NCBI GenBank assembly: GCA_937859535.1
Contig: CALLYL010000404.1
Span: 1-43,432 of the forward strand
Direction: 5' to 3'
Source of the DNA: an uncultured Myxococcales bacterium
Lineage (GTDB): Bacteria > Myxococcota_A > Polyangia > Palsa-1104 > JAEUJZ01
Length of the DNA: 43,432 nt
Shown here: positions 4,964 through 34,899 of the stretch, piece after piece
Layout of the letters: each line of letters starts with the position of its first letter
How positions within the stretch are numbered: the first letter of the stretch is position 1
Translations under genes and position numbers: made by a program
The notes under the pieces: model-generated
The model's database searches: none
Told to the model about the DNA's origin: nothing
Seen by the model: only the letters and a program-made list of their open reading frames with translations

Positions 4964-7900
4964 ATGCAACCGCTTACCTGCATTTACTGTGGCTCCTCGA
5001 ACTTCTCCCACGCCTATCAACGCGCTGATGGAAGAGCCATTGTCGGTTGCCAGGACTGCGGGCTCCTCTTCATTTCGGACATCCCCGATAACATCGCAGA
5101 GCTGTATGGCACCGATTACTTTCACAAGACAGAGTCCGCTTCTGGCAACGGCTACTCCAACTATGATGGACTCGATCCGATAGCCTTTCGCTGGCAGCTT
5201 GCGCTGTCGCGACTATTTTCCGGACACACTGCGGATTGTGCGAAGACGATCCTTGATCTCGGCTGCGCCACCGGCCACTTCCTGAAGATGGCTGGCGCTG
5301 CTGGATTTCACTGTGCAGGCGTCGAGATCAGTCCGAGTGCAGCAGAGTCCGTCCGCCAGCAGGGATTCCCGGTGCTGGTATCGTCGTTTGAGTCTGCAAA
5401 TCCAGCACCGGTTGACCTTGTTACGGCCTGGGATTTTATCGAACACGTGGTTGATCTTCGTACAACCTTTGAAAAAGTACGGAGCACCCTACTCGATGGC
5501 GGAGTGTTCCTGTTTGCAACCCCAGATGGGGGATCGGCGCGTGCCCAGGAGCATGGTGAAAAGTGGATCTGCCTAAATAGCTCTTTTGAGCATATTACAT
5601 ATCTCACTATCCCATTTTTGGAAAGAGCGCTCCGCGAAACCTTCGGTTGCGAACCACTACTGCTCAGCTTCGACGTTGGCGAGTTCTGGACCAGCATCAT
5701 CGGTATGGTCCGTGTGGGAGGATTGACCGAACAAGATCGGCGAATCGGACAGCTACTGCGCAGCCAAGAGCAACCGTCGAGCGATGAAGAGATCACCAAG
5801 TTCGGCAGTGAACTTGGCTTTTTCTACGCCACGTTCATGCAGCTCGCGGCTCTGTCGCGGCTGATCGAACGAGCCGACGGGCTACTCCCTCCAGCGACGG
5901 TTGCAGCCCTGCATGGCGGACTCCTGTACTTGTCTGATCAGTTCCCAGAATCCATCCCATGGCTGCGCCAAGGTCTTTCCGCAGAGCCACTGTGTGCCGC
6001 TTGGCTTGCCACTGCAAACGCGCATACCCTCACCCTACGCGAGCAGAACCATCAGTCCCAGCTCGAACAGCAGAACCGCAGTGCCGCAGACCAAATCGCC
6101 CGGCTCCGCAACGAAATCAATCAGCTTCGCGAAGTCAACGATCAGATCATCCATTCGGTGACGTGGAAGGTAGGACGCAAGATTACGCAGCCGATTGAAA
6201 GCGTTCCGCACAGTCGCGCCGTCCTTTCAGGGCTTCAGCAATTCCGCGAGCGAGGCCCGCTTCGCTCTCTGCAAGCCGCTCACAGCTATGTCCAAGCCAT
6301 CACGGATTCCAGCAGCGCCAACCAGAGCAAAGCCCAGCGACTCGCAACCGCGAGCCTGAAAGTGACCGAATACGTCACCGAGCATGTACACCCTGGCCGA
6401 CTTCCCAATCTGCTGACCGCCTTCCTACAGGACAAGCTGCCACTTCTGCGAAGCAAACAGAGCCAAGAGCCGGCCTCCGCTGGATTGGGTCTACCCAGCG
6501 AGATCCCGCCTCGCGATACCGTGACGCACACCAGTACCAGTCCGCGAAATTCCGATTCCGCATCGGCTGTGCCCGCCTCTGTTTTGCTCAGCGATCCGGC
6601 GCTCGTTCGCCATCAGGGCCTGCCACTGGTGAGCGTGATTCTGCCGGTCTACAATCAAACCGATCTGCTGCGTTCCTCGGTTCTCAGCGTACTATCCCAA
6701 AGCTATCCCCATCTTGAGCTGATCATAGTGGATGATGGCTCACGCGAAGACGTTGCGGCGTCGCTCGAAGGGCTTCTCGATCTGCCCTCAGTGCATCTGT
6801 TCCGTCAGGTCAATCAGAAACTACCACGGGCTCTGAGTAACGCGTTTCAGTTTGCCAAAGGAGAGCTGCTCACCTGGACCTCTGCGGACAACTTGATGCA
6901 TCCGCATGCCATCGCCCGACTGGCGGAGTCTCTGTTCCGTCATCCTGAGGCGGTGCTGGCCTATGCCGACGTTGACATTATTGATGACAATGGCAAACCA
7001 ATCACCGACGGCTCCTATCGTGAACTGAACGTCGACCCGATCGCTCCTGAAGTGGTGCGACTGTGTCGCAGTGATGTTCCGCTGTCCGCAGAACGCGATA
7101 ACTATGTGAACGCCTGCTTCCTGTATCGCCGGAACGCAGCGGCATCCATGGGCCATGTCTATTCTGACTCCCTGCGCGGTGCAGAAGACTATGATTTCTG
7201 GCTCCGCCTGCGTCGCTGCGGTCGACTTCTGCATATTGGGAATCGTGAGCCACTGTATTCCTATCGAGTACATCAACGATCCATGAGTCACGATCTGCTG
7301 ACCCAGGAACGCAACGAGCATTATGCACGGGTCTCTCTGCTCATCGATCTGGAGGAACAACGACGCAGCTTTGCCCGTCAGCGCTGGGACGTGGTGCTCG
7401 ATCCCGCCCTGCCCTACCGCACCCGCACCACGCTACAAGAACAGCTTCAACAACTGCCCGTCAACCTGGCCGTACCCGGTGCACAGGATGCGGGCAGTGG
7501 ACGCAAGAACCTCTCGATCGTTCCAGAGGATGCCCAGCCCGCGCAGAGTCGCTCATGGCAGGTCTTTGCACGGGTACTCCCGGACTCCTATGAACTGGTC
7601 TGCCGACCCTCACCGAGCGCGGTCCAGTCAGGTGTAGAACGTCCTCCGCAGCGCGAGCGCGTCATGCCCCTGCTACGCGGCTGCACGAGCAGTTCACTCC
7701 TTATGAAGGCCCGCGACGTTCAGCACTCGGCCCGAGCGCTGCCACCCGCAGTTGCGGGTCGCCCGGTGTTCGCGATTCCGGTACCGCTGCAGCGAATCGG
7801 CATCGACCGCCTGCGTCAGATCATCACGGCCAATCCCTGGGCCTACTTCTTGTTCGTCAGCGTTGCCAGTCCCAGTGAGATGCTCCGGCTAGAAGGACTG

Positions 7901-9505
7901 TCGAATGCAGGTTTCGTGGAAAAGTTCTTGCTCGACTCTTCCTATGAAGTTTATGGAATGGTGAACTGGACGCTCGTTCCGCCCTGTGAACCGCCGCTGT
8001 CTCAAGGAGAGTATCTGCAACAGCTCGCGGATTCTTATTCGACGGGACATCCGCTCATTTTGAGCAGTGGCCAGCCATTGGTCATGGCCCCCTATCAGCT
8101 CTGTCTTGGGGATGATCCATCCTTGTCACTGTCTTTTGCGAAGCAGCTCCGCCGCGATATGATGCAGTTGGAAGTCCTCAATTCCTATCTGGAGGAATGG
8201 CAGCCCGAACGATGCCTGGCCAACCTGCTGCGGCATGCCAATACCTTCGCACAGGACTTTGCGGTACCGCAGCCCAATACCGGAATCACACCGCCCCCGT
8301 ACGCGGAACCACAGCCGGTGCAAGTGATCAGCGCGGGAGCGCAGCCGCTCCGTAACGTGATGCTGGTGGATTCGCTCGATGTGGGAGGGCTGGAGGAAGT
8401 CGTCGCGTTCCTGGTCCGCAACCTCCACCAACATGGGGTCCGGACAGCAGTGGCTTGCTTCCAGCGCGGTGGACAGGTGGCAGACAAGCTACGCGCCGAA
8501 GGACACGACATTGTGCTGGCAGAAGGAAACGAACAGAGACTTCACAGCCAGCTTCAACAGCTCGATCCACAGATCATCAATTCGCACTACGCCAGCTTGC
8601 CCGCGCTGCTTGCTGCCGAGAGACTGAGCAGACCAATCGTTGAGACGATTCACAACACCTATGTCTGGCTAAGCCCAGAGCAGTGGAAGATCGAAGCAGA
8701 GCGGAGCCGCCGTTTTGCCAAAGGTCTGGCGGTGAGCGGCCTGGTAAAACGCTACTATCACGCGCACAATCCCACGCTGCCCACAGATCGAGTGATCGTG
8801 GTGGGAAATGCAATTGATCCGGAGCGGATTACCGCCGTTTCACGCGACGAGGCCAGGCGTGCTCTGGGGATTCCCGATTCAGCCACTCTCTTCCTGTGTC
8901 TCGGTCGCTACTGTTCGCAGAAGAACCAGATCGGAATCGTCCATGCGTTCGCGCAACTCGCAGCGCGTGATCCGCAGGCCATTTTGCTCTGCATGGGCAA
9001 CGTCCCACCAGAGGAGAGAGCTTACTATCAACAGCTTCAAGCGCTGTGCGAGAGCCTGCCTTGCCGCGATAGGATTCGGCTCGACAGCTATCACCCAAGC
9101 GTCTCTACCGTGCTCTCGGCCGCTGATGCCATGGTGATGAATTCCTTCTTTGAAGGCTGGAGCCTGGCCGCCACCGAAGCACTACTGACCGGAACACCGC
9201 TGATTCACAGCTTGTGCGGCAGCGCCGAGGAGTTGTGTGGAGCAAGCGCGGAGCGTGGCTTTGTGATTCCCAACCCCGGAGGAGACATTATGCAGCTCCA
9301 GATTGGGGCCCTGGTCGACATAGCCTCCCGCGCTGAACAACCGAATCAAACAGAGCTTATCCGCGCCATGGATCGCGTCGTGGCTGAGCGAGACAGACTC
9401 CGCTCCGATCGCGACGCCATCAGTGCTTATGCCCGGCGGGTCTTTCATCCGACCGCGATTCTATCGCGCTATACCCAGACCTTCCGTGCCCTTACGAGGA
9501 ATTGA
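4964..9505 (+). CDS. 1513-aa multidomain glycan-assembly enzyme: Zn-ribbon + class I SAM methyltransferase / coiled coil / GT2 / uncharacterised ~330-aa module / GT4
   Basis: CxxC...CxxC (aa 6-32). SAM motif I 'ILDLGCATGHF' (aa ~96). Heptad-rich 'LREQNHQSQLEQQNRSAADQIARLRNEINQLREVNDQI' (aa ~358-396). GT2 'VSVILPVYNQTDLLRSSVLSVLSQSYPHLELIIVDDGS' plus 'LTWTSADN' and 'EDYDFWLR' (aa ~555-785). GT4 'VMLVDSLDVGGLEEVV...FFEGWSLAATEALLTGTPLIHS' (aa ~1130-1513). Confidence 0.85.
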   Translation: MQPLTCIYCGSSNFSHAYQRADGRAIVGCQDCGLLFISDIPDNIAELYGTDYFHKTESASGNGYSNYDGLDPIAFRWQLALSRLFSGHTADCAKTILDLGCATGHFLKMAGAAGFHCAGVEISPSAAESVRQQGFPVLVSSFESANPAPVDLVTAWDFIEHVVDLRTTFEKVRSTLLDGGVFLFATPDGGSARAQEHGEKWICLNSSFEHITYLTIPFLERALRETFGCEPLLLSFDVGEFWTSIIGMVRVGGLTEQDRRIGQLLRSQEQPSSDEEITKFGSELGFFYATFMQLAALSRLIERADGLLPPATVAALHGGLLYLSDQFPESIPWLRQGLSAEPLCAAWLATANAHTLTLREQNHQSQLEQQNRSAADQIARLRNEINQLREVNDQIIHSVTWKVGRKITQPIESVPHSRAVLSGLQQFRERGPLRSLQAAHSYVQAITDSSSANQSKAQRLATASLKVTEYVTEHVHPGRLPNLLTAFLQDKLPLLRSKQSQEPASAGLGLPSEIPPRDTVTHTSTSPRNSDSASAVPASVLLSDPALVRHQGLPLVSVILPVYNQTDLLRSSVLSVLSQSYPHLELIIVDDGSREDVAASLEGLLDLPSVHLFRQVNQKLPRALSNAFQFAKGELLTWTSADNLMHPHAIARLAESLFRHPEAVLAYADVDIIDDNGKPITDGSYRELNVDPIAPEVVRLCRSDVPLSAERDNYVNACFLYRRNAAASMGHVYSDSLRGAEDYDFWLRLRRCGRLLHIGNREPLYSYRVHQRSMSHDLLTQERNEHYARVSLLIDLEEQRRSFARQRWDVVLDPALPYRTRTTLQEQLQQLPVNLAVPGAQDAGSGRKNLSIVPEDAQPAQSRSWQVFARVLPDSYELVCRPSPSAVQSGVERPPQRERVMPLLRGCTSSSLLMKARDVQHSARALPPAVAGRPVFAIPVPLQRIGIDRLRQIITANPWAYFLFVSVASPSEMLRLEGLSNAGFVEKFLLDSSYEVYGMVNWTLVPPCEPPLSQGEYLQQLADSYSTGHPLILSSGQPLVMAPYQLCLGDDPSLSLSFAKQLRRDMMQLEVLNSYLEEWQPERCLANLLRHANTFAQDFAVPQPNTGITPPPYAEPQPVQVISAGAQPLRNVMLVDSLDVGGLEEVVAFLVRNLHQHGVRTAVACFQRGGQVADKLRAEGHDIVLAEGNEQRLHSQLQQLDPQIINSHYASLPALLAAERLSRPIVETIHNTYVWLSPEQWKIEAERSRRFAKGLAVSGLVKRYYHAHNPTLPTDRVIVVGNAIDPERITAVSRDEARRALGIPDSATLFLCLGRYCSQKNQIGIVHAFAQLAARDPQAILLCMGNVPPEERAYYQQLQALCESLPCRDRIRLDSYHPSVSTVLSAADAMVMNSFFEGWSLAATEALLTGTPLIHSLCGSAEELCGASAERGFVIPNPGGDIMQLQIGALVDIASRAEQPNQTELIRAMDRVVAERDRLRSDRDAISAYARRVFHPTAILSRYTQTFRALTRN

Positions 9506-14365: not shown

Positions 14366-15340
14366 TTAGGAACCGCCAATGCAAAATGGCTCCAGGGCCT
14401 GCATCCCACCGACGGGAAGCTTGCCTCCAGCGTTTGGCACACAGGCCAGCAGTCCCTTGTCACAGATGTATAGTCCAGCATTGCGTCCGGCCCCCGACTT
14501 CGCACAGTCCAGATCGGTCTGACAGCTCTGCAAGTAGTATCCTTTGACATCCATGGGCGTCAGTCCGTACTTGGGAACGCCGTAATAGGAGGCCTTACTC
14601 GGACGACAGACCGTGCTGGCAGAGTCCGCCACCGCGCAGTAACCAGTCGGCCACGGCACGTCGGTCTCACGCAGACAGACTCCGTTTGTTCCGCAACCGC
14701 CGTCTACCTTGCAGCTTGTTCCTAACTTGACCCCACAATTTGTCGGATCATTTCCCGGCGTCACTTGAACGTCACAGCGCTGCGGTAGCGCGATCGGATA
14801 GATGCCCGCAGGGAGCACTCCGCCGGTTGGAGTAGCCCACGCGGGCAGCTCTGCCGGGACATACAGAAAGACTCGATTGGGAAGGACTCCCATGAACGCA
14901 TCGCCCGAGGAATAGCGACCATCCTGGTCATTGTCCAGATAGGCCAGGATTCGCCCCGCCGCGAAGCCACGGCTCAATCCGGATGGGGTCCGCGCAATAT
15001 GCTCCGCCCCCGGATATTCATACATGTTGAGCAAGAAGGGCGTGGATGCCAGTCCAACCAGGCCGCTACTCAACTGCTCCACATATTGAGTGGGATCGGT
15101 GCCGGTGTCTCCCTGCGGGTTCCAAAACATCGCGATCCGTAGTTCGGTTGAGCTGGTCAGCTTGGGGTCGCTGATCTCCAGCCCACCGGAAAACTGCCAC
15201 AGCGACTTTCCGCGAAACTGCTGATCGACCAGTGGCTCACCACAGGCACTGAGCGCAAGCAACAGACCCAGCGCCAGCCCGCTTTTCGCGACTCCCATCC
15301 CTACACTGTGTACCATTGGTAGGTTTGTTAGAAACGCCAT
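14366..15340 (-). CDS. Lipoprotein with a DxDxDG-type loop and a Cys-rich C-terminal domain
   Basis: Start set at ATG 15340 (GGAGGGGGAAT-ATG Shine-Dalgarno), 13 nt inside the upstream gene's end. Lipobox 'LLLALSAC'. 'DNDQDGRYSSGD' loop. About 14 Cys in the last 130 aa. Confidence 0.7.
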   Translation of the reverse strand: MAFLTNLPMVHSVGMGVAKSGLALGLLLALSACGEPLVDQQFRGKSLWQFSGGLEISDPKLTSSTELRIAMFWNPQGDTGTDPTQYVEQLSSGLVGLASTPFLLNMYEYPGAEHIARTPSGLSRGFAAGRILAYLDNDQDGRYSSGDAFMGVLPNRVFLYVPAELPAWATPTGGVLPAGIYPIALPQRCDVQVTPGNDPTNCGVKLGTSCKVDGGCGTNGVCLRETDVPWPTGYCAVADSASTVCRPSKASYYGVPKYGLTPMDVKGYYLQSCQTDLDCAKSGAGRNAGLYICDKGLLACVPNAGGKLPVGGMQALEPFCIGGS

Positions 15341-16968
15341 ATTCCCCCTCCAGCCAGCCACCACGTGAACACCGAGCGAGTCTGCGCAGTTTGCTCCGCA
15401 CCGTTCATGAGCACCGCCTGATTCAACAGACTCGCGCTCGGCCCGCCTTCCAAGCGCATGCCGACTCCACGAAACATTTGTCGCTCCAACGCAAACAGCG
15501 CCGAAAATCCGATGCCGAAGGAATTGCGCGACTGCACCTGGCGGAGTGTCGGAGCAAAGCGCTGGGCATACCAAGTTCCTTCGATCGTCACTCCGAATGC
15601 CAAGCTAAACCACGGCAAGTCGACATAGCGTTGCAGAACGGCCGCCAGACCGAGTTCATACTGTCGCGAAGCAAGACCGCCATCGATAGACATCAGCGAT
15701 GCAGTGCTTCCTCGCAATCTCGCCCCTACGGTCAACCAGGGCAGGTCCGCAGCGTACCCAAGCAGCACATTGGGGGTCGGTCCTTGACCCGCCAGGATCT
15801 CTCCCCGTCCACCAAACAGCAGGTTCAGACCATGTACGGAAGTACGCGTTCCTCCCCGCTTGCGTACCAGTTGATCGTAACGAACGGAGCGATACGGCAA
15901 TGATGCCAGATCGACCTCTTGGCCCGGCACAAGCTCGATTTGATACTCTCTGAATTCGTAACTCCCTCGTCGCTGAATGAAGTATTTTCCACGCGGTAGC
16001 GCGATCACTCCCTGGTTGCGTGTGGTGGTTAGTTCCGCAACCACGGCACCACTTTCGCGCTCCTCCGTAACCAGATACATGCTGGCATCGGCCAGTCGCA
16101 AGCGACCCAGATTGTGTTCGGCACCAGTCAGCGTAGTCAGGACCAGATCACCACTTCCTTTGACATCGTACGCATAGGTTGGGTGTTGGAGCTGAAGCGT
16201 CTGTCCGCTCGATCGCAGAGTCTGCGCATAGCTATAGGCATATGCTTCCGAGAGGGTCACCCTTCCATCGCCGTTGCGATCTGCCGCGCCCCGCAGCGCG
16301 TTGACCAGGTGATGCGAAAAGAACGAAGCGCGCAGCCGATCGGACTCCTGACTGGACTCCCCCGCCGTGCTGGAAGAGATCATCGCGGTGCCTTCTGCTT
16401 CGACCCGATCCTCCAGCTTGATCGCAAACTCAGGGACACTGCGAACCCCTTTTACGCGAGTCACAGCCCCTGAACGACAGGCATCAACCACCAGCAGTCT
16501 CATCGTTGCGGGCGAGCCAGATACCAGTCCTCGTAGCTCTTCAATGGGAAGCCTGGTGCCGCGCAGGTGAAGTGATTCCGCATCCGCGTGACCCGAGTAG
16601 AACACCAGCAGCGCAGTGGTTTTGCCATCCGCAGACCTGGCCCGTAGTCCAGCGTTTACATTGACCAGCGCACGACGAACGGTCTCGGCACTCTCATCGA
16701 TGAGAATCCGAACTCGGTCGGATGCAATGTTGCCTTGGGTGCGCAGAACTTCGGCGAATTCTCTGGCATCGCGCTCCCCGTATAGCAACTGTATCTCGTC
16801 GGCATCCCCCCGGTTATTGCCCACCACAATCAGCCAGCTTTCATCAGGGAGTGCATGGACCCGCATTCCCCAAAGCAGGATTATCAGACCTGCGAGCAGA
16901 GAAAGCGAATGACGCATGTTGCGACTGATTCTGTGGCCGATTTTCTTATGTAGCAGAGCACGCTTCAT
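15328..16968 (-). CDS. Secreted caspase-family (peptidase C14) protein with a C-terminal outer-membrane beta-barrel-like domain
   Basis: Signal peptide 'LSLLAGLIILLWGMRVHA'. Catalytic dyad contexts 'LLVFYSGHA' (His) and 'LLVVDACRSGA' (Cys). Canonical EF-hand loop 'DRNGDGRVTLSE'. The last ~190 aa show an alternating amphipathic strand pattern ending 'GGGIWRF' (terminal Phe). The start ATG overlaps the upstream stop (ATGA at 16965-16968). Confidence 0.8.
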   Translation of the reverse strand: MKRALLHKKIGHRISRNMRHSLSLLAGLIILLWGMRVHALPDESWLIVVGNNRGDADEIQLLYGERDAREFAEVLRTQGNIASDRVRILIDESAETVRRALVNVNAGLRARSADGKTTALLVFYSGHADAESLHLRGTRLPIEELRGLVSGSPATMRLLVVDACRSGAVTRVKGVRSVPEFAIKLEDRVEAEGTAMISSSTAGESSQESDRLRASFFSHHLVNALRGAADRNGDGRVTLSEAYAYSYAQTLRSSGQTLQLQHPTYAYDVKGSGDLVLTTLTGAEHNLGRLRLADASMYLVTEERESGAVVAELTTTRNQGVIALPRGKYFIQRRGSYEFREYQIELVPGQEVDLASLPYRSVRYDQLVRKRGGTRTSVHGLNLLFGGRGEILAGQGPTPNVLLGYAADLPWLTVGARLRGSTASLMSIDGGLASRQYELGLAAVLQRYVDLPWFSLAFGVTIEGTWYAQRFAPTLRQVQSRNSFGIGFSALFALERQMFRGVGMRLEGGPSASLLNQAVLMNGAEQTAQTRSVFTWWLAGGGIWRF

Positions 16969-19220
16969 GGCTTCAGAAACTCATCGACAGAGACACTTCC
17001 AAGGCGACCGGCAGCTCCGGCATTATACAAGGAGACATGCGAACCAGCGATGCGAAGATAGACCTCGGTATAGAGTGAGGACAGCATGGGAACCGGTGAC
17101 TTGCTCATCAGGTTCACCACCTGATTCGAGAACGCATCATTGACCCACGAGCCCACCTCGGCATCGTAGGCCCCTGCGTAGGACACCTCTCGACTGTGCG
17201 CGGCACTGAGGAGAACCGTTCCGGCCAGCGGTGTCATCGCTCCGCTCGCCCCGCAGCCTAGCTCGATACCGCCATAGGAAGCGTCCCCGAACGCTCCACC
17301 GTAGCAGCTCTCGACAACGACCAGCGCCCGACGCAGACGGCCTTCGGTTTGCAGCACACACAGAGCTTCGCGAAGATGTTTCGGAGAAAACGTCGAGCCA
17401 CTCGCCTTGAGTCCCTCCGCTGGAGAGCTGGCTGCAATCGGGATTCCTTGGTTGCCACCATGGCCCACCAGATAGATGTACAGGTTGCTCGCCGATGTAG
17501 TACGGATGACTTGTGGAGTGCGATCTGAAACCTGCCCGGTGATGATGCTGGTCAGATCGGTCGGGTTCACCAGCAGGTTATAGTCACGCACCACCCCACG
17601 ATAGAGATTCGGCCCACCGGGTTCGTTCCGCACCGTGCCTGCCAAGGGATTGCGGATTGAAGTGGCCAGATCATCCGCCATGATGAGCACGATGTGATCG
17701 TCTTCAAAGCCCTGGGCCCGCAGGAGCTGATACTGACGGAGCGCATCGGCTTGATGCCGGTAGTTGCTCCATCCTGAAGACAACGCGGCAATCACCGCCC
17801 AGGAGTCTCCCTTATCCACCTTGGGAGTCCAGGCGCTGCCACCGAGATCGCTTTGGAACGCTCGATTGGGAGGCACAAACACTCCGCTGCTGCTCAGAAA
17901 AGCCGGATCTCCGGTGAAGTAGCGGCGGTCTGTTTGCGGTCCCTGCGGAGTCATTCGCCAGTGTGTCAGCGTTGATGATGACAGATCCACATAGAGTCCC
18001 GGTTCGAACTGAAGCGGCCCCGTTGCACCCGGAATTCGCGGTCGGTGCCCCTGTGCAAGCAAAGACAGTGCGCTCGCAATTCCTGCTTGATCCCAACCAC
18101 TCACCCCATCCTCTCGACCATCCACCACTGACTTCAGGGCGTCGACCAGCACCTGTCCTCCTTGCCCTCCCGAAGCGGCCAGTCCGTACGCAAGAAGGAG
18201 TATCGCGTCATACTCATTGGGACCATGCGGAGCAAGGCGCGCACCACCAAAGCGGCTGTGGAAGGCTTGCTCGAACTGCTCCGTCCCCGCGCCGCTGAGT
18301 CCTTCGATTCGCATGGCTTCTGGACCCAACTTGGTCAGGCTATTGGTATCAAGTCCGGTGTCCGCAAGCATCACCCGTGGACCAGGATTTTGCGCCAGCT
18401 TATGAAGGATGCAGTCCTGTTCCTGAGTTGCACCGGCAGCGATGAAAACGATATCTGGAGCACTGCTCACGGCGGACTGCACCGCAAGGTCACACGCCTC
18501 TCCTTTGGCAAAGGCAGAGATCGAAATTGCATCATCTGCGTAGCCCAGCTCTTTGGCGAAAAACCCGAACCAGGAAAAGAAAGTGTATCCGCCGTTATCG
18601 AGGGTGCTGATCAATGCCAGCCGTTTCAATCCCTCCTGTTTGGCCATACGAACCAGCAGCTCTGTCTGCGCGATGTCAGACTGCCTTGTCCGCCAGATCA
18701 CGCCTTTGCCGCCATACGCACGGAGGATCTCAGCAGCCGCAGAAGTCGTCGACACCAGCGGCTTGTTCGCAGCCAGATAGGAGTCCGCCACCGCTGCCAA
18801 CATCTCCGAACCAGGAGGGGCAATTGCCGCAACATAGCGATCATTGGAAGCGACTCCTTGGCTGATCTCGATGATTGCGCTGAGGTCTTTGCCGGTAAAG
18901 TCGAAGTATTCTAGCTTCAGCGGGCGACCGGCCACTCCTCCTGCCGCGTTCACCAGTTCCGCAGCCCAGTCCATGTTCGGATGTGCGAGTGGAGTCGCTC
19001 CGGCAGACCCCATGCTCATATTCATGCCCGGGGGCGGGTCGGTTGCGCCCATGGTTGAAGGGGCAGCAATTCCCATCAGCACCGCAATGCGCAGCGGCTC
19101 GGTACCCGAACCACAGGCCGAAAGGACACAGGTCATCATGGACCAGGCCAATAGCAAGAAACAGTGTTCGACAATCACTGACAGAGGTCTATTCGCACAG
19201 CGGGTCCAGGTGGCTGACAT
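16965..19220 (-). CDS. Lipoprotein fusing a type-I periplasmic binding protein domain (Leu/Ile/Val-binding / ANF-receptor-like) to a legumain-type (peptidase C13) domain
   Basis: Start at ATG 19220 (GAGGAG 5 nt upstream). Lipobox 'VLSAC'. PBP-like 'LRIAVLMG...AAELVNAAGGVAGRPLKLEYFD'. Legumain motifs 'WAVIAALSSGWSNYRHQAD', 'IVLIMADD', 'LYRGVVRDY', 'YLVGHGG' (His), 'VVVESCYGG' (Cys). Confidence 0.8.
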   Translation of the reverse strand: MSATWTRCANRPLSVIVEHCFLLLAWSMMTCVLSACGSGTEPLRIAVLMGIAAPSTMGATDPPPGMNMSMGSAGATPLAHPNMDWAAELVNAAGGVAGRPLKLEYFDFTGKDLSAIIEISQGVASNDRYVAAIAPPGSEMLAAVADSYLAANKPLVSTTSAAAEILRAYGGKGVIWRTRQSDIAQTELLVRMAKQEGLKRLALISTLDNGGYTFFSWFGFFAKELGYADDAISISAFAKGEACDLAVQSAVSSAPDIVFIAAGATQEQDCILHKLAQNPGPRVMLADTGLDTNSLTKLGPEAMRIEGLSGAGTEQFEQAFHSRFGGARLAPHGPNEYDAILLLAYGLAASGGQGGQVLVDALKSVVDGREDGVSGWDQAGIASALSLLAQGHRPRIPGATGPLQFEPGLYVDLSSSTLTHWRMTPQGPQTDRRYFTGDPAFLSSSGVFVPPNRAFQSDLGGSAWTPKVDKGDSWAVIAALSSGWSNYRHQADALRQYQLLRAQGFEDDHIVLIMADDLATSIRNPLAGTVRNEPGGPNLYRGVVRDYNLLVNPTDLTSIITGQVSDRTPQVIRTTSASNLYIYLVGHGGNQGIPIAASSPAEGLKASGSTFSPKHLREALCVLQTEGRLRRALVVVESCYGGAFGDASYGGIELGCGASGAMTPLAGTVLLSAAHSREVSYAGAYDAEVGSWVNDAFSNQVVNLMSKSPVPMLSSLYTEVYLRIAGSHVSLYNAGAAGRLGSVSVDEFLKP

Positions 19221-19360
19221 GGTGACTCCTCTCACAGCGGACGACCTCTTAGCGTATCGTGAATCGGCAGTACGTAAGACCCCCATCGACACGATTTGGG
19301 CAAGCACAGGCTGGCGCAAAACCCCACGGTGCGCGCCCTGGCTGCTGCTACAGTAGCGGC

Positions 19361-20700: not shown

Positions 20701-23262
20701 TTACGCCTTGTCTTCCGAGCTCACCGCCTCCAGCAGCGAAATCTCAGCAGTCGAGTACTGTCGCCACTCACCGAACGGAATCACCACATCGAAGCAGGTC
20801 CGATCTCCGCGTCGCTCCGCCACGATTTCCCAACCGTGGGCACGTACCAGTCGGTGCGTAATCGCGAGCCCCAGCCCAGTGCCTTGGGCTTTGGTCGTAA
20901 ACCACGGCTCGAATATCTTTGCCACCGGGGCCGAAAACCCCGGACCCTCGTCCCACACAACCAGCCGCAGTACACCTTCCGGGTCAATCACAGAGTGGAG
21001 CCCGACGCTGCCATCCGGGGGGCTCGCATCGATCGCGTTCGCCAACAGGTTGAGCAGCACCTGAATCAGCGCATCGGGATCGGCCAGCACCTCGATGCCG
21101 TCCTGCATCTCCATCTTGAGTGAGTGTCGGATCAACCGATCGGCAAGCAGCAGTCGCACGTGATCCGCCACCGAGCGCAGCGATACCGGACGAGGCTGAA
21201 CGGTCCGAGACAGCGCCATCTTGCGCAGTCGATCGGCCATTCGCTCCAGACGCGACACTTCCTCGCGGCCAATATCGAGGTCTTCAGCCCAGTCGGTCTC
21301 ACTCAGTGGCTTGCCTTGATGCAGCGTCCGTTCCTGTCGTTCAACGAGCATGCGGAAGAAGTTGATGGGAAAACGGATCTCGTGGGCAATCTCGGCAGCA
21401 ATCGTCGAGATGGCGCGATCGAGTCGCTCGCGATGAGCACTGTGCTCGGCCCGCCGCAGCTCATCGAGTTCTTCAAGTGCAATGGCGTTCGCGAGCGCCA
21501 ACGCCGCTTGGTGCGCAATCGTCAGCAGCAGCTCTTGATCAAGGCTGGTGAACAGCTTGCCACGCAGCTTTGGGGACACCACCAGCACCCCAATCACCTG
21601 CTCGCGAAACCGAACCGGCACCAGCAGCCAAGCCCACAGCCCCGGGCTGCTCTTGCGAATCGAGCGCTCTGACTCGACAAACACCAAGTTGCCATTGCAC
21701 AGCGCATCGATCTGTTCAGGACGCAGGTTGTCGACGCCAGCCCCGCGTAGCGCCCGCCGAATCGCCCGCTGCGTCAGCCGAAACAAGGTGCGGCCTGACT
21801 CTGCGCCGGTGTCTGCTATGGTCAGGAGCGGCACGTTGGAACTCTGTCCGGGATCTAACGGCGCGCTCGGTGGTCCCTCCGGTCGCGACGATGGACCATT
21901 TTCCATCGCTCCATCTCGATGGCGGACTCGACGAGGTGAGCTAACTGCCACGAGCTTCGCACGCGAACAAGCACAGACCGTCGTCACCGTCTTTTCCACC
22001 GTTTCGATCACCGACAACCGGGTTCTCAGATCGGTAAAACGCACGATCAGCTCATCGACGGTGGTGCGATACAGCGCCTCGGCTGGGAACAGCCGTGCTG
22101 TCAGCCAACTGCCAAAGAAGCCGTGCGCAGGCCCCGCCACGCTGATGACCGTCAGCAGCAGCACGATCTGCACCGGGAGCGGCAGACCAGCCATCAACCG
22201 CCAGACCATCACCGCCCACAGTCCTCCCATGAAGCTGAGGATGGCAATCACCAGCGTTCGCAGCCCCGTGCCAGGAACCACAAGCTCGCTGTCCCACAGG
22301 TCGTGTCGCACCATGGCTACGATCAAACACAGTGCACACAGCAATCCCACCGGCAACGCCAACATGAGCAGAGGAGGTCCACACAACTGTGGCATCCGCA
22401 CCGTCACCGCAAACAGAAGGTGCATCGGCAACACCGCCACCGCCCCGAAAATCGCTTGGGCTCGTCGCCGCTGACGCAGACGAATGACCCGCCAGATGAT
22501 CGCCGCCAGTGCCAGTCCCAAGATGACCGGTGCCGAGTCCTCCACCGCGTGACGACACAACACGGCCCACGGTCCATCGAGCGACAGCGCCCCAACCACC
22601 AGCAGCAGCAAGACACCGTCCATCCCGCGCAGCATCCCGTGCAGCCACGGCCACCTCACCAATATCGGAACGCGAACCGGAAAGAACAGCACAAACTCCA
22701 GCAGCGCGGACTGCATCAGCGCATAGGCCAAAAAGTAGGCCGGCAGGAGACGACGGGACGTGTGAAAATCGCAGATGGTAATGAGAAGCGTCGCGACCAG
22801 TGCAGCCCATCGTGCAAAGGCGCGGGCGGCAATTCCATCGGTTCGCACCACGTAAGCAAGTCCGGCGGTCAGGAGCCAGACCCAACCCAGCAGAAGGCTA
22901 CTCCCAAACAACAACAGAACGGACACAGAGCGCGATCGCACCGTCACTTGCCCAGACCAAGCATCCCCCTTCGGATCTACGCCGGCCACCGCCTGATCCA
23001 GGGTGACAGAAGCCGTTTGCGCGGCCAGTTCACCAGGAGAGGAGGCAGAGGCGAGTACGATCATCGTCCACGCCACGAACACAAAGAATGCAACCCACAT
23101 TGCAGGAAAGGGACTCTCCAAACGGAGTTGGGGAAACCGGCTCCCAGACTGCGTGGCACTCCCCAATGAGCTCGAAAGGGAGTTCGGCAAGGAACCCGAT
23201 AGCGAACTCGAAAGAGAGCCAGACACGGAACGGGGCAACGTGCGAGGCAGCGTGTCAGACAT
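20701..23262 (-). CDS. Sensor histidine kinase: polytopic (~9-10 TM) N-terminal sensor, GAF-like domain, HisKA, HATPase_c
   Basis: H-box 'AAEIAHEIRFPINF'. N-box 'LLNLLANAIDA'. G-boxes 'DEGPGF' and 'GTGLGLAI'. GAF-like 'VIGVLVV...LLLTIAHQAALALANA'. Start uncertain (ATG 23262 or ATG 23100). No response regulator is adjacent. Confidence 0.8.
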   Translation of the reverse strand: MSDTLPRTLPRSVSGSLSSSLSGSLPNSLSSSLGSATQSGSRFPQLRLESPFPAMWVAFFVFVAWTMIVLASASSPGELAAQTASVTLDQAVAGVDPKGDAWSGQVTVRSRSVSVLLLFGSSLLLGWVWLLTAGLAYVVRTDGIAARAFARWAALVATLLITICDFHTSRRLLPAYFLAYALMQSALLEFVLFFPVRVPILVRWPWLHGMLRGMDGVLLLLVVGALSLDGPWAVLCRHAVEDSAPVILGLALAAIIWRVIRLRQRRRAQAIFGAVAVLPMHLLFAVTVRMPQLCGPPLLMLALPVGLLCALCLIVAMVRHDLWDSELVVPGTGLRTLVIAILSFMGGLWAVMVWRLMAGLPLPVQIVLLLTVISVAGPAHGFFGSWLTARLFPAEALYRTTVDELIVRFTDLRTRLSVIETVEKTVTTVCACSRAKLVAVSSPRRVRHRDGAMENGPSSRPEGPPSAPLDPGQSSNVPLLTIADTGAESGRTLFRLTQRAIRRALRGAGVDNLRPEQIDALCNGNLVFVESERSIRKSSPGLWAWLLVPVRFREQVIGVLVVSPKLRGKLFTSLDQELLLTIAHQAALALANAIALEELDELRRAEHSAHRERLDRAISTIAAEIAHEIRFPINFFRMLVERQERTLHQGKPLSETDWAEDLDIGREEVSRLERMADRLRKMALSRTVQPRPVSLRSVADHVRLLLADRLIRHSLKMEMQDGIEVLADPDALIQVLLNLLANAIDASPPDGSVGLHSVIDPEGVLRLVVWDEGPGFSAPVAKIFEPWFTTKAQGTGLGLAITHRLVRAHGWEIVAERRGDRTCFDVVIPFGEWRQYSTAEISLLEAVSSEDKA

Positions 23263-23359
23263 CGCTAAACGTACGAGAGAACAGCGTATCACCGCTCGCT
23301 TGACACAGGCTACGCAAAGTCGATACGCTGCGCAGTCGTTTGAAAATTGATTTGAGCGA

Positions 23360-23515
23360 GCAGGTGTTCGGGAAGCCAGAACCAAGCTGGCGCCGCCCCC
23401 GCGACTGTATCGGACGACGGACCTTGACGGGATAGCCCGTAGGACCACTGGCAAGACCATCTTGCTGGGAAGGTTTCAAGGTTCGAAGGACTCCGAAGCC
23501 AGGAGACCGGCCTGC
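23360..23515 (+). promoter_or_regulatory. Cobalamin (B12) riboswitch, Rfam RF00174 class
   Basis: Conserved blocks read directly: 'GGGAAG-CCAG..CTGG-CGCCGCCCCCGCGACTGTA' (23370-23409); 'CCACTGG-CAAGACCATCTTGC-TGGGAAGG' (23445-23473); B12 box 'GAAGCCAGGAGACCGGCC' (23495-23512). P1 pairs GCAGG 23360-23364 with CCTGC 23511-23515. The block order matches the E. coli btuB leader. It lies 5' of a TonB-receptor gene. Confidence 0.85.
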
Positions 23516-23548
23516 ACGCAGCAAAAACCTTTCGGGAGGAAGGGTCCG

Positions 23549-25642
23549 TTGCGTTCGCGAGCGCTTTGCACACGTCTATCTTTGGTTTCCGGTTGGCTGC
23601 CAGTCTTGGTAGTCGTCTGGCTCGTCGCTTGGCACTCGGTCCATGCGCAGAGCATGGGCACGACGGTCCGCGGGGATGCACTCCTTGGCCAAACGGACAG
23701 CCCGACCTCCGTCACAACGATTGAGGTGGGTCTGCCCGGGCAAGCCAGTGCGCCCAACGCCTATCGCCTTTCGGTGGCAGAGCTGCTCGTCGGTCAGCCT
23801 GGTGTCCAGGTGCGACGGAGCGGCGGTCTGGGGCAATGGAGCGGAGCCAGCTTACGTGGAGCAGCCCCTGGACAAGTAGCGGTCTTTCTGGACGGAGTTC
23901 CGCTATCGCGAGGCAGCCAAGCGGCGGTTGATCTGTCGCTGCTCCCACTCGATGGATTGGAACGAGTCGAGGTCTACCGTGGCGTACCACCACTCGCACT
24001 CGGCAGCGAAACGCTTGGTGGAGCCATCAACCTTGTCACTCGCCGAGGAAAAGGCCCGCAGACTGCATGGGCCAGCCTCGGCAGCGGGTCATTCGGACTC
24101 AAGCGCGTAAGCCTTGGCTATAAGACGCCCTGGCCGAAGGCGATGGTCACGATCGGCTACCAAGGTGCCGACGGAGACTTTCCGTACTACTTCAACGAGG
24201 GACTTCGCTACGAGCACGATCAACTGGCCGAGCTGCGTCGTCGCAACGATGACTTTGCCCAAGTCAGCGCCGATGCTCGGCTGCAAAGCGAAGGAACTTT
24301 TGGTTCAGTATTCCTACATGGCAGCGGGCTGCTACGTCGCCAGGGTGTCGCAGGGATCGGCCAACCATCCTCGCTGCCAGGACAACCCACGCTTCAGACT
24401 GGGCGTGCGCTCTTCGATGGCGGAGCCCGATTGCGTACCCCGTCCCCTCGTATCGCAATCGATTTGGACGGACATCTGCTCGTCGAACGGACTCAGTCCA
24501 AAGACCTAGTGGCCTTACCCGCAACCCTGACCGAACAACTCGTCGAGCAAGCGGGCCTGCGGTCACTGCTGCGGGTGCTTACCGGGCCCGGTGCCGAAAA
24601 TGCCCGGAGCCAGCTACTCGCCATCACCGAGTTCCGCTATGAGCGAATGCAACAGCGCGATCTGTGTCCAGCCCCGCGCCTCGACTGTGATCGATTGACT
24701 GCGGCCAGCAGTGAACGGCTGCGCGGAGCCATGGCACTCGGTGGTGAACTGTACCTCGCGGACCAACGGGTTCTTGTCGAACCGGGATTGCACCTGCTGC
24801 TCGCAAAATCGACCTACGAGAGCCTCGGTGATCGCGGCAATGAGCGTGTTCCACCGACGTTCGATGCCCTGCCGTCACCACGAGCGGCGGCACGAGTGCT
24901 GCTCAAACCATGGCTGCTGCTACGCATGAGCTGTGGTCGATTCGTGCGACTGCCGACCTTTCTGGAACTCTTTGGCGACGGTGCCTTCTTCCGCAAGAGC
25001 CTTGGTCTACGGCCCGAATCGGCCTGGACTGGTGAGCTAGGAATCGAAGCTCACGGCCAACTGTTCTCTCGGCTCAGCACTGCGTTGAGCCTGCACGCGT
25101 TCGGTAGAACCATCGACGACCTGATCGACATCGTCCGCGATGGTCCGACCCTGCGCGCCCGCAACGTCGGCCAGGCTACCACTGCCGGTGTCGAACTAGC
25201 GAGCGCCGCCCATTTCGGTGAGCTGCTCCACGTCGAGTTAAATTATGCGTTCCTCGACAGTCGTGACCGCACCGATCAGCCGGGACGCTCGGGCAACCTG
25301 CTACCCGGTCGACCACAGCACACGGTGTTTCTGCGCAGCGAGGCGGCCTACCGCACCGCGCACCTGTTCTACGAGCTAGACCACGCGAGCGCCGTCTACT
25401 TAGACCCGGCCAACTTGGTCTTGCGTCCGCCCCGAACCCTGCATGCCATCGGGGTCGCGTTGGGGCCACTCGGTCCGCTCAAGTTGTCACTGCGCATCGA
25501 GCTACGCAACCTGCTCGATACGCGCCTGGTCGACGTCACGCTGCCGCTGATGACCCGAGCGGTGCCGGTGCCGCTCACCGACTTTTTTGACTACCCGCTG
25601 CCGGGCCGGGCGCTCTACGCGACGCTGGCAGGACGGCTGTAA
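23549..25642 (+). CDS. btuB: TonB-dependent outer-membrane receptor, BtuB-like (cobalamin/corrinoid uptake inferred from the riboswitch)
   Basis: Plug-domain motifs closely parallel E. coli BtuB: 'QPGVQVRRSGGLGQWSGASLRGAAPGQVAVFLDGVPL' and 'ERVEVYRGVPPLALGSETLGGAINLVTRR'. Start placed at TTG 23549 (GGGAGGA 8 nt upstream; gives signal peptide 'RSRALC...WLVAWHSVHA'), because the ORF's first 29 codons lie inside or just downstream of the riboswitch. Confidence 0.8.
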   Translation: MRSRALCTRLSLVSGWLPVLVVVWLVAWHSVHAQSMGTTVRGDALLGQTDSPTSVTTIEVGLPGQASAPNAYRLSVAELLVGQPGVQVRRSGGLGQWSGASLRGAAPGQVAVFLDGVPLSRGSQAAVDLSLLPLDGLERVEVYRGVPPLALGSETLGGAINLVTRRGKGPQTAWASLGSGSFGLKRVSLGYKTPWPKAMVTIGYQGADGDFPYYFNEGLRYEHDQLAELRRRNDDFAQVSADARLQSEGTFGSVFLHGSGLLRRQGVAGIGQPSSLPGQPTLQTGRALFDGGARLRTPSPRIAIDLDGHLLVERTQSKDLVALPATLTEQLVEQAGLRSLLRVLTGPGAENARSQLLAITEFRYERMQQRDLCPAPRLDCDRLTAASSERLRGAMALGGELYLADQRVLVEPGLHLLLAKSTYESLGDRGNERVPPTFDALPSPRAAARVLLKPWLLLRMSCGRFVRLPTFLELFGDGAFFRKSLGLRPESAWTGELGIEAHGQLFSRLSTALSLHAFGRTIDDLIDIVRDGPTLRARNVGQATTAGVELASAAHFGELLHVELNYAFLDSRDRTDQPGRSGNLLPGRPQHTVFLRSEAAYRTAHLFYELDHASAVYLDPANLVLRPPRTLHAIGVALGPLGPLKLSLRIELRNLLDTRLVDVTLPLMTRAVPVPLTDFFDYPLPGRALYATLAGRL

Positions 25643-33800: not shown

Positions 33801-34086
33801 CACCCAGACCGACCTACACATTGGCTACGATCATCTGCTGACAGAAAGAGAGCGGATCGGGGTGTTCGTGGACCTGATCAACTTGTTTAATCAGCGCGAG
33901 ATCACCAACGTCGATGACAACTACACCTACTCTCCCGTGAAGGCGCTGGTCGACGAAGAAACCCAGAAGAAATTCCAAGTGGAAACCGTCGATGGGAGTC
34001 CGTTGGTCGCCAACAGCAACTATGGTCAGGCCACCGCCTACCAAGCCCCCTTATACCTTCGGCTGGGTGCTCGACTCACCTTCTGA
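30811..34086 (+). CDS. Oar-like giant TonB-dependent outer-membrane protein (CarboxypepD_reg-like N-domain + plug + large barrel)
   Basis: Signal peptide '...GGVSPAYAQ'. Carboxypeptidase-regulatory-like 'GVVRSAETGEGLAGVTVAVQS...TDAKGRYLITALPPGDDYIV'. Plug 'ENAYLIDGINTTD' and 'EINVLTGGYQAEYGRATGGIVSLVTKSG'. C-terminal 'YLRLGARLTF'. Confidence 0.8.
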   Translation: MASVMQAPVVVRLQWLRLLLVIVATGGVSPAYAQVLNAQIQGVVRSAETGEGLAGVTVAVQSPALPDLQAEITDAKGRYLITALPPGDDYIVNFYFGPSDKPLLVRTGIRLSAAKTVAVDARLSTTAQTQRVQVIRETAPNVDVANANTGVEINQEMLRQIPLRGRSFQGALFLAPGAADVAARNFNTVEGSFATPGGDVGVSISGSTGSENAYLIDGINTTDPGLGVVGAEVSQYFLREINVLTGGYQAEYGRATGGIVSLVTKSGSNELHGGVYGSVAPYQISGQGVARLGEALVRRTRPDMGTWDLGFDLGGALIKDRIWFYTGLAITNVNVRTERRGRSQIFDGTGARDLADFVCPSYLSDSRYCDGPSKLAKQTEELDYVQTQAQTRAIYNGIAKLQFHLATDQDLFLSYIGSPNTRDTYYEYGTGDEGSKFTESNQVHDLSLRYQGKTFGKKLQIDLTYAMHYQTQVQQPRLPNQPFTAYTADAADPYSLADFESVAACRRDAASGFNPCPITRYVVGLGFHRSQELQRHQALAGFTLFVNALGVHAIKAGLDFEYLRSNLTSIATGQDGYRATYNSTADGTDIFSGFGLGGKVNGVDTPLNSLTTVTSTRNYAVYLRDSWSVASTGLTLNIGGRWEGLQMIDVNGDTRLSVLDNFAPRVGAVWDFTRLTKRPGRGKLFVNYGRFYESVGTDLGDRAFGGQAFYFRAAGMAPAACPQISRQPGGRPLPTPGPGCSFDTQLLFGGNPYDVVPGAKPSSIDEVTAGISYDVGYDIVLSASYIYRGLSNVLEDFSTDGGSTYFIGTPGLAPDAATLQAATDEAARLNAIAMSPSATQADQDAAAKAKTRLDAFSGIGNYPRPTRNYHAMVLSASKRLSKRFSFLASYTFSRTTGNYPGTFNSTNGQLNPHTSTQFDFPELLLNRDGPLPTDRPHNFKLSGFYQQPIGDKGVLTGSLTFTAISGRPIEVLGAHPAYGPSEVFILPRGSGGRTPTITQTDLHIGYDHLLTERERIGVFVDLINLFNQREITNVDDNYTYSPVKALVDEETQKKFQVETVDGSPLVANSNYGQATAYQAPLYLRLGARLTF

Positions 34087-34119
34087 TCGGCCCCTGTCTG
34101 CTCTCTCCCTTGGGAACAA

Positions 34120-34524: not shown

Positions 34525-34710
34525 GATGATGAGACGTTCCCTTGTTTCGACGTGAAGGGAGACAGGAATTATCATTCAACGGACTGAATCATGTCCTGCC
34601 GCGGAGGCACAGAGATAGCAGAAAACACGGAACTTACAATCAGAACTTATAGGTCATTATAATCATTAACAAAAATCGCCTACGCCACCATGGTTCGACC
34701 AACTGTGCCA

Positions 34711-34732
34711 ATTGAGAGCATATGCTCTCAAT
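34711..34732. promoter_or_regulatory. Perfect 22-bp palindrome ATTGAGAGCATATGCTCTCAAT, a candidate dimeric-regulator operator in a divergent intergenic region
   Basis: Reverse complement is identical. It lies in the ~40% GC spacer between the divergent genes starting at 34524 (-) and 34900 (+). An ATTATAAT (TATAAT readable on both strands) lies at 34656-34663. Confidence 0.45.
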
Positions 34733-34899
34733 CCGGTCACTTTCATTCACCACCGACGCACAGCCTCTGTATGAGAAAACCAGTGCAATATCAGCTTAAT
34801 ATGAATTAAGCGCTCAAAATTGCTCAATCAAATCCAACATTGATGTACTATACGATGCTGAGCTTCATGAAATAGGGGTCAGCGCAGCAGAGGTCGGCC

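Follow-up and report, generated by a model that had tools for sequence, protein, structure and literature searches.

What three overlapping genes, two of them encoding different caspase-fold (clan CD) peptidases, contribute to the cell envelope of a myxobacterium is the question raised by a contig of an uncultured Myxococcales bacterium (GenBank assembly GCA_937859535.1, contig CALLYL010000404.1, positions 1 to 43,432). The window, by which we mean this whole stretch of 43,432 nucleotides, is a Myxococcota contig of ~58-62% G+C. Metagenome contig WBZP01000479.1 (L088) is 100% identical to it, and its closest genome relative is a Polyangia metagenome-assembled genome (MAG; L004, 89% protein identity). 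The three genes, here called g1, g2, and g3, had been read as a periplasmic or outer-membrane two-protease cascade with a dedicated third component. Our analysis points elsewhere: we consider it probable that the block is an envelope-protease operon in the regulon of a sigma factor of the extracytoplasmic function (ECF) type, made up of a widespread g2-g3 core and of g1, which was recruited in one small Polyangia clade.

Layout of the block

The genes and their overlaps are placed as follows.

16965-19220, minus strand: g1 open reading frame (ORF), 751 amino acids (aa) from the ATG at 19220
15328-16968, minus strand: g2 ORF, 546 aa
14366-15340, minus strand: g3 ORF, 324 aa
16965-16968, minus strand: ATGA, overlap of the g1 stop and g2 start, raw sequence AAG CCA TGA over ATG AAG CGT
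15328-15340, minus strand: ATGGCGTTTCTAA, 13-nucleotide (nt) dual-coded overlap of the g2 stop and g3 start, GGA ATA TGG CGT TTC TAA over ATG GCG TTT CTA A

Both overlaps between the minus-strand genes, reported earlier, are present in the raw sequence, and a GGAGG-like ribosome-binding site precedes the 13-nt one. The g1 start at 19220 is backed by the ribosome-binding site GAGAGGAG and by homologues of equal length, and the g3 start by a conserved N-terminus, M-A-x-L. Inside the block, consensus scans detected no sigma-70-like promoter, and terminator-like matches were no more frequent there than expected by chance; with the overlaps, this upholds the earlier single-operon claim: g1-g2-g3 is, as predicted from these features, one transcription unit encoding three cell-envelope proteins. 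Export signals and localisation were judged from sequence patterns, conservation, and predicted fold; the export signals proposed for all three products hold on pattern and conservation. On one side of the block lies coaBC, in divergent orientation; on the other, a convergent glycosyltransferase/epimerase cluster comes to an end 12 nt away from the g3 stop.

Conservation of the g2-g3 pair

A g2 profile scan with one genome per species returned 402 stretches or loci, of which 80 loci were kept; some counts below run over 86 or 89 loci. By tblastn, a relative of g3 lies directly downstream of g2 in ~72 of the 80 genome loci, down to 24-30% identity, and g1 adjoins g2 in only two of them (L004 and L014). 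Overall, g1 has g2 as its neighbour only in the closest relatives of the window (L004, L014, and L088-L091), its identity there being about 71-100%. The gene order in these loci and in the window is CoaBC, g1, g2, g3, and glycosyltransferases; the sister genomes L005 and L007 have the same order without g1, and in L006 and L008 CoaBC directly adjoins g2-g3, also without g1 and with no glycosyltransferase match detected there. Conserved synteny of all three genes, on which the original prediction depended, largely fails, as g1 is absent from 78 of the 80 g2 loci, sister genomes included. On this comparative evidence the g2-g3 pair is a widely conserved myxobacterial unit and the trio is not; the presence or absence of g1 reflects an insertion or deletion at one fixed syntenic site, and g1 is apparently a recent add-on recruited in one small Polyangia clade.

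The two junctions appear to differ in age accordingly. In 57 of 86 loci, an ORF of 250 codons or more opens with a start codon at -13, and more distant loci have TGATG-type g2/g3 overlaps. The g2 C-terminal W-R-[F/L]-stop and the g3 N-terminal M-A-x-L are encoded by the same nucleotides, (A/G)TGGCG..., and this dual coding accounts for the near-invariance of both ends. As judged from this distribution, the 13-nt g2/g3 overlap is ancient. The g1/g2 ATGA coupling occurs only in relatives of at least 88% identity, with a ~70-nt gap in its place in L014, L090, and L091, and by the same kind of comparison is evolutionarily recent.

Homologues of g2 number more than 1,000 proteins in Myxococcota. 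Single genomes may hold several paralogous C14-barrel/lipoprotein modules, most with their own sigma and anti-sigma genes: five were found in MAG JAUHXC01 (L045, L047, L052, L055, and L064) and four in JACKDP01 (L049, L053, L065, and L080). L045 and L055 lie ~15 kb apart on one contig.

ECF sigma context and a shared promoter-like motif

The original prediction mentioned neither an ECF sigma context nor a shared motif. In ~58 of the 80 loci, genes for an ECF sigma factor and an anti-sigma factor lie directly upstream of g2 on the same strand; both were called as genes in L003, L084, and L085. The sigma factor passes the generic sigma70-ECF model only. The anti-sigma factor (~250-280 aa) combines a zf-HC2 motif with a single transmembrane segment and, in the periplasm, a DUF4384 domain, which in L085 scores 28.8 bits against a Pfam cut-off of 27.

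Bipartite word enumeration upstream of the ECF sigma genes of the module found de novo the motif TTGCC(C)-N-CGGGTC, the full form of which, TTGCCC-N13-14-CGGGTC, heads sigma/anti-sigma/g2/g3 units. A relaxed scan places a same-strand copy no further than 2.8 kb upstream of g2 for 51 of 89 loci, versus ~9 expected; chance alone would give 0.38 strict motifs per window. Where the motif lies follows the head of the transcription unit: it is found upstream of sigma (~1.5 kb from g2) or between sigma and anti-sigma (~0.9 kb), at 120-233 nt upstream of g2 where the locus has no sigma, and upstream of g1 in the clade of the window, where the copy is:

19278..19303, minus strand: promoter-like motif TTGCCCAAATCGTGTCGATGGGGGTC, TTGCCC-N13-GGGGGTC, between coaBC and g1, 58 nt upstream of the g1 ATG

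L004, L089, and L090 have orthologous copies upstream of g1, with 0-1 mismatches, and when the upstream regions of the window, L004, L089, L090, and L014 are aligned, the two boxes are the islands of conservation. No motif was found upstream of the genes for g1-like proteins in L084-L087, L092, and L094-L096. ECF sigma operons are autoregulated, and we infer that the motif is sigma dependent because it sits upstream of such operons. The unit in the window would then be under the promoter of the module, with the sigma factor encoded elsewhere.

In L010 (~1550), L012 (~1926), and 11 other loci the motif lies between the sigma and anti-sigma genes, so that the regulated unit there would be anti-sigma/g2/g3. 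A second relaxed match in the window, TTGCTCTGCTGGTTGTCTTCCGGGTC at 40307-40282 on the minus strand, has one mismatch per box and begins where ORF 39477-40307 has its listed TTG start; chance is the probable explanation.

g2, a predicted barrel-anchored caspase-like protease

The features of g2 are as follows.

aa 1-39, minus strand: signal peptide, a hydrophobic N-terminus and then A-x-A|LP
aa 43-270, nt 16159-16842, minus strand: C14 domain (Pfam, AlphaFold)
16588-16590, minus strand: His127, in the SGHA motif
16477-16479, minus strand: Cys164, in the DACRSG motif
aa 229-241, about 16244-16284, minus strand: EF-hand-like loop ADRNGDGRVTLSE, a canonical EF-hand loop match with invariant ligand positions
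aa 276-363, nt 15880-16143, minus strand: beta-sandwich (AlphaFold model)
aa 378-545, nt 15334-15837, minus strand: eight-strand beta-barrel (AlphaFold and Foldseek)

The caspase (C14) motifs noted at first reading are borne out by a Pfam match to Peptidase_C14 (PF00656) at 42.2 bits, above the cut-off of 21.4, and by the His/Cys dyad: His127 and Cys164 are invariant in 63 aligned proteins, and both motifs occur in 120/120 family members, 98 of which also keep the A-x-A|LP signal pattern. An AlphaFold model built from the 63-sequence alignment (predicted local distance difference test score, pLDDT, 83.7) has a signal peptide, a caspase fold, a beta-sandwich, and eight long strands. Foldseek matches the N-terminal half with probability 1.00 to caspase-6 and -9, metacaspase-9, and legumain, at target-normalised TM-scores of 0.5-0.68. 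The match to NCBIfam NF047832 (caspase_w_EACC1, conflict systems) reaches 64.9 bits, below its cut-off of 140.

The C-terminal barrel ascribed to this protein is likewise seen: its strands (aa 378-545) are mostly modelled at pLDDT >90, and Foldseek matches this part to the OmpA transmembrane domain, NspA, OmpX, OmpW, and Ail (E 2e-6 to 1e-4). No Pfam or NCBIfam model covers aa 378-546, and since no outer-membrane protein family model matches the barrel, the resemblance is one of fold only. The last residue, which is the F of W-R-F in the window, is L in 49, F in 27, R in 21, Q in 9, W in 5, I in 3, and M in 2 of the family (n=120); as a C-terminal "BAM signal" (beta-barrel assembly machinery) it is hard to interpret because the position is also constrained by the overlapping g3 start. 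Outer-membrane barrels with an even number of strands have both ends in the periplasm, so the protease domain of g2 would hang from the inner face of the outer membrane. We therefore predict from the model that g2 is an exported caspase-fold protease tethered to the outer membrane by its own C-terminal barrel.

The motifs of g2 further suggest that it cuts after Arg or Lys and is calcium dependent, like metacaspases, because of Asp162 in D-A-C-R-S-G, the EF-hand loop, and the conserved R171 and K173. The latter two stand in a disordered loop after Cys164 that carries an invariant R171-V-K173-G-V. Residues 165-215, the counterpart of the caspase activation linker, contain no Asn, the residue after which legumain cuts. 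A reading of the middle beta-sandwich (aa 268-372) as a DUF4384 domain was rejected, with no Pfam match and an hhalign probability of 0.2% against the periplasmic domain of the anti-sigma factor.

g3, a cysteine-rich lipoprotein

Two features of g3 were placed.

15242-15244, minus strand: lipobox Cys33, in L-S-A-C33
aa 136-147, about 14900-14935, minus strand: DxDxDG calcium-type loop DNDQDGRYSSGD, in the N-terminal beta-sandwich half

The lipobox Cys is at least 90% conserved in the family, and the C-terminal half contains 12 invariant cysteines, which fits an oxidising compartment. A g3 profile finds 471 representative clusters in a 1.84-billion-protein library. The family has no match in Pfam or NCBIfam; members scanned singly against Pfam gave sub-threshold Squash, WAP, and EF-hand matches only, a 20-sequence profile had no match among PDB sequences up to E 1, and the only structures that Foldseek returned were generic beta-sandwiches, at E >0.02. 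The AlphaFold model has an overall pLDDT of 54.6, with a moderately confident N-terminal beta-sandwich.

Both g2 and g3 carry one conserved calcium loop of the EF-hand/DxDxDG type. EF-hand loops usually pair, and intermolecular pairing between g2 and g3 is conceivable from the presence of one loop in each.

g1, a lipoprotein with fused binding-protein and legumain-like domains

The features of g1 are as follows.

19113-19115, minus strand: lipobox Cys36, in V-L-S-A-C36 after a hydrophobic stretch
aa 84-365, nt 18126-18971, minus strand: type-I periplasmic binding protein (PBP) domain, PF13458 Peripla_BP_6
aa 474-733, nt 17022-17801, minus strand: legumain-like C13 peptidase domain, PF01650

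At least 90% of the family keep the lipobox Cys. Both domains score above their Pfam cut-offs (Peripla_BP_6 63.8 bits against 31.7; Peptidase_C13 132.7 against 22.8), and by phmmer the C13 part aligns to PDB entries for legumain, plant asparaginyl endopeptidases/ligases, and GPI8 (E 1.6e-25). The legumain motifs reported for g1 are thus real: across 24 aligned PBP-C13 proteins, NYRH (486-489), GHGG (His587), and ESC (Cys639) are invariant, with a catalytic set of Asn486, His587-Gly588, and Cys639, and so are the S1-pocket residues R488, H489, S680, and D695, E637 being nearly so. Of 120 family members, all have NYRH and 114 have [IVL]E[SATG]C. HMMER splits the PDB alignment at the Cys, which is followed by a ~13-aa insertion; the assignment of this residue therefore rests on the Pfam envelope and on the conserved V-V-V-E-S-C strand.

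Among the C13 enzymes legumain, asparaginyl endopeptidase, and GPI8, the domain keeps the counterparts of legumain Asn42, His148, and Cys189 together with the S1 pocket. Unlike legumain, g1 is a bacterial lipoprotein with an N-terminal type-I PBP fusion and the post-Cys insertion, and its location offers no acidic compartment for activation by pH. Its C13 domain reaches to aa 733 of 751, with no other domain beyond it; in the absence of a C-terminal legumain stabilization and activity modulation (LSAM) prodomain, g1 is a member of the C13 family and not a legumain in the zymogen sense. Its residues suggest an Asn-directed endopeptidase or transpeptidase that may be gated by a ligand on the PBP domain.

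The PBP-C13 fusion family comprises ~130 proteins from Nannocystaceae, Polyangiaceae, Plesiocystis, and a few Acidimicrobiia. Figures for its neighbourhoods rest on 7 loci, and the metagenome scan used the single g1 protein; it returned 6 loci, all close relatives except one weak 27% match. Five homologues were sampled blind to context, and no C14 gene lies within 10 kb of any of them. In 5 of the 7 loci examined, and in 3 of the 5 context-blind ones, PBP-C13 adjoins a gene for a predicted Cys-rich lipoprotein of ~380 aa, at these positions:

L084:4627-5805
L085:3539-4669
L086:8363-9904
L087:6857-8014
L095:3742-4887

Neither Pfam nor NCBIfam has a model that matches this lipoprotein, BLAST detects no similarity between it and g3, and the window does not encode it. 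With PBP-C13 it looks like a second, independent pairing of a clan-CD protease with a disulfide-rich lipoprotein. On metagenomic contigs L084 and L085, PBP-C13 lies 1-4 kb from a complete sigma/anti-sigma/C14/lipoprotein module in convergent orientation; these contigs were picked as likely carriers of g2 homologues and so are not context-blind. A loose association of PBP-C13 with the C14 module thus exists in these loci but is not the rule. In L084, a MazE/PemK toxin-antitoxin pair (7126-7748) lies between the PBP-C13 gene group and the module.

What the operon may do

As an ECF-regulon envelope-protease operon, the block would work as follows. An envelope signal would activate the ECF sigma factor, which would induce the operon. 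On the periplasmic side of the outer membrane, g2 would act as a calcium-dependent, metacaspase-like Arg/Lys protease, and g3 would bind it one-to-one as adaptor or inhibitor. The target that we favour for g2 is the periplasmic DUF4384 domain of the cognate anti-sigma factor; in that case the pathway would have g2 as its signal-sensing site-1 protease, and membership of g2 in the regulon would provide positive feedback. In the lineage of the window, the sigma and anti-sigma genes are not at the locus, the motif is kept at its head, and g1, placed between promoter and g2, would be a lineage-specific extra output or input that is ligand gated through its PBP domain.

For the ancestral module we favour, with modest confidence, such a regulatory g2 that cuts the periplasmic domain of the anti-sigma factor. 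We do so because there are up to five paralogous modules per genome, most with their own sigma and anti-sigma, and because DUF4384 recurs with caspase-like proteases. A further reason comes from type III-E systems, in which the caspase-like Csx29 cleaves Csx30, a protein that binds the ECF sigma factor RpoE (bioRxiv 10.1101/2022.08.17.504292); some Csx30 C-terminal domains are DUF4384.

Several points weigh against this reading. The P1 specificity and calcium dependence of g2 are drawn only from motifs, its localisation from sequence patterns and a predicted fold, and the g3 model is poor. There is no sigma or anti-sigma gene within the 43-kb window. ECF dependence in the window rests on a copy whose second box departs from ACGGGTC at 2 positions, and the motif is unlike the common ECF consensus GGAAC...CGTC; many of the 51 loci (of 89) that have it are from related Archangiaceae. 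Finally, the pair persists without an adjacent anti-sigma gene in the clade of the window, which fits an effector role at least as well.

That role is the main rival to a regulatory g2, and a real if lesser possibility: the ECF response would have g2-g3, here with g1, as its outputs, and these tethered periplasmic proteases would degrade or process envelope proteins that are damaged, or remodel the envelope, g3 serving as substrate adaptor much as in the lipoprotein-protease pairs NlpI-Prc and LbcA-CtpA. The pair stands behind the motif without adjacent sigma and anti-sigma genes in L001, L006, L008, L023, L024, and the clade of the window, where a second envelope protease has been added to the same transcription unit, and its conserved translational coupling suggests a stoichiometric complex of protease and partner. 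However, paralogous modules with private sigma and anti-sigma genes look like signalling units and not like housekeeping, the anti-sigma factor carries a domain that recurs with caspase-like proteases, and g3 has no similarity to the adaptors NlpI and LbcA, which are of the tetratricopeptide repeat (TPR) type.

A sub-variant compatible with either role of g2, which we regard as rather unlikely, makes g3 a disulfide-knotted inhibitor that keeps g2 latent until a signal such as calcium or envelope damage arrives, as in the staphopain-staphostatin pair. Coupling that is conserved one-to-one and the 12 invariant cysteines in a compact C-terminal half would suit it, and three family members match Squash (best E 0.0096) and two match the WAP four-disulfide-core (0.054). 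These matches are below any significance threshold and may reflect cysteine spacing only, and g3 has a poor model with no structural match.

The dedicated periplasmic two-protease cascade, in which g1 activates or is activated by g2 and g3 is substrate, inhibitor, or scaffold, now appears improbable. It draws on the ATGA coupling of g1 and g2 in the window, L004, L088, and L089, the single compartment predicted for all three products, the intact active sites of both proteases, the proximity of PBP-C13 to a full module in L084 and L085, and the position of g1 behind the promoter motif of the module in its clade. Yet the 78 g2-g3 loci without g1, among them sister genomes with the same site, indicate that the pair works without it. 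Of the five context-blind PBP-C13 loci, none has a nearby C14 gene and three have a lipoprotein partner of their own. The linker of g2 lacks the Asn that g1 would be expected to cut, its invariant Arg and Lys fit self-processing, the motif does not precede PBP-C13 genes elsewhere, and the ATGA overlap is recent. Synteny, linker, separate partner, and motif distribution together tell against a conserved cascade with a dedicated third component; as a clade-specific innovation a cascade is possible.

More doubtful again is a combined scheme in which g2-g3 would be a trans-envelope signalling device of a kind not described before, g2 cutting the DUF4384 domain of the anti-sigma factor as a periplasmic counterpart of Craspase-Csx30-RpoE, and in which the addition of a ligand-gated PBP-C13 upstream, in the lineage of the window, would have turned it into a two-step clan-CD cascade triggered by a small molecule. 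Cell death or anti-phage defence built on caspase homologues (gasdermin-activating proteases, CHAT/Craspase, or metacaspase programmed cell death) is very improbable: prokaryotic metacaspases have been proposed as cell-death effectors, in Myxococcus among others (PMC3501461), and g2 has its weak caspase_w_EACC1 match, but all three proteins have export signals, g2 is a predicted outer-membrane protein, there are no PADLOC matches and no gasdermin, NTPase, TPR-CHAT, or CRISPR genes nearby, the flanks (CoaBC and the glycosyltransferase cluster) are housekeeping, and the locus is syntenic and stable across related genomes.

Relation to known systems

Operons of a sigma factor and a metacaspase were recorded in Myxococcus, Anaeromyxobacter, Haliangium, and Sorangium in 2012, with no function assigned (PMC3501461). 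The operons of that survey by Asplund-Samuelsson et al., from Myxococcus xanthus and other Deltaproteobacteria, likewise combine a caspase homologue with a sigma-70-family (ECF) sigma factor, recur in Myxococcota, and occur in several copies per genome. The survey reports co-occurrence only, and the DUF4384 anti-sigma factor, barrel, Cys-rich lipoprotein, and promoter motif are not described there. The copy in the window differs from these operons in having no adjacent sigma gene and a C13 gene in its place.

Metacaspases and orthocaspases (C14B, for example those of cyanobacteria) resemble g2 in the fold, in the His/Cys dyad, in D-x-C-[HR]-S-G with its Asp ahead of the catalytic Cys, in what is likely a calcium site, and in a basic residue on the linker that follows this Cys. 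Those that have been characterised are found in the cytoplasm, whereas g2 is predicted to be Sec-exported, is fused to an OmpA/OmpX-like barrel, and has an obligate lipoprotein neighbour. Craspase also links a clan-CD protease to an ECF sigma factor and a sigma-binding protein, and DUF4384 is common to Csx30 and the anti-sigma factor of the module. Craspase is cytoplasmic, whereas g2 would be periplasmic and bound to the outer membrane, and cleavage of the anti-sigma factor is hypothesised here. Neither the window nor the related loci contain Cas7-11, the TPR-CHAT protein Csx29, Csx30, Csx31, or a CRISPR array, and the likeness is one of analogy only.

The RpoE-RseA-RseB/DegS envelope-stress pathway and the lipoprotein-protease pairs NlpI-Prc and LbcA-CtpA, in which DegS, Prc, and CtpA are serine proteases, offer parallels in logic. 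The former has the same order of sigma, anti-sigma, and periplasmic accessory proteins, with a protease that senses an outer-membrane-related signal, and the latter pair an outer-membrane lipoprotein with a periplasmic protease. Unlike DegS, Prc, and CtpA, g2 is a caspase-fold cysteine protease with its own barrel anchor, and g3 is unrelated to RseB, NlpI, and LbcA.

Envelope localisation alone is not new, since gingipains (C25) and clostripain-like C11 enzymes are bacterial clan-CD cysteine proteases that act outside the cytoplasm (PMC4357240). These belong to other families, rely on type IX secretion and anionic lipopolysaccharide or on free secretion, and have neither a barrel fusion nor a linkage to sigma factors. 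In the literature searched, we found no paper on the barrel fusion, the coupled lipoprotein family, the DUF4384 anti-sigma factor in this setting, the motif, or bacterial PBP-C13 fusions, and the main text of the ECF re-classification paper makes no mention of caspases.

Bacterial caspase-fold proteases have so far been seen mainly as cytoplasmic effectors of death or defence. The g2 family differs in being, as predicted, exported, barrel-fused, coupled to an orphan lipoprotein family, and usually co-transcribed with an ECF sigma factor and a DUF4384 anti-sigma factor. If g2 is indeed the signal-sensing protease, it would define a new class of ECF activation, give DUF4384 a function, and link periplasmic signalling to the logic of Craspase, Csx30, and RpoE. 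The PBP-legumain fusion represents an uncharacterised bacterial C13 family of its own, and it suggests periplasmic proteolysis or ligation that is Asn specific and gated by a ligand.

Other features of the window

At 4964-9505 on the plus strand, a single ORF of 1513 aa fuses methyltransferase, GT2, and GT4/GT1 glycosyltransferase domains and stands at the head of a cluster of polysaccharide type (epimerase, membrane protein, GT2), the synteny of which extends across the clade. Between ORFs 30811-34086 and 34900-36720, G+C drops to 0.494 over positions 34001-35000, against ~0.58 around it, and this stretch has no tRNA or Rfam matches. A cobalamin riboswitch (Rfam RF00174, 82.7 bits) at 23345-23529 on the plus strand lies directly upstream of, and partly over, the listed start of a TonB-dependent receptor ORF (23462-25642), which is probably a BtuB-like gene for B12 uptake. 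The same riboswitch also runs into the far N-terminal extension of ORF 20701-23460, a GAF histidine kinase on the minus strand, so the true start of that ORF must lie further downstream.

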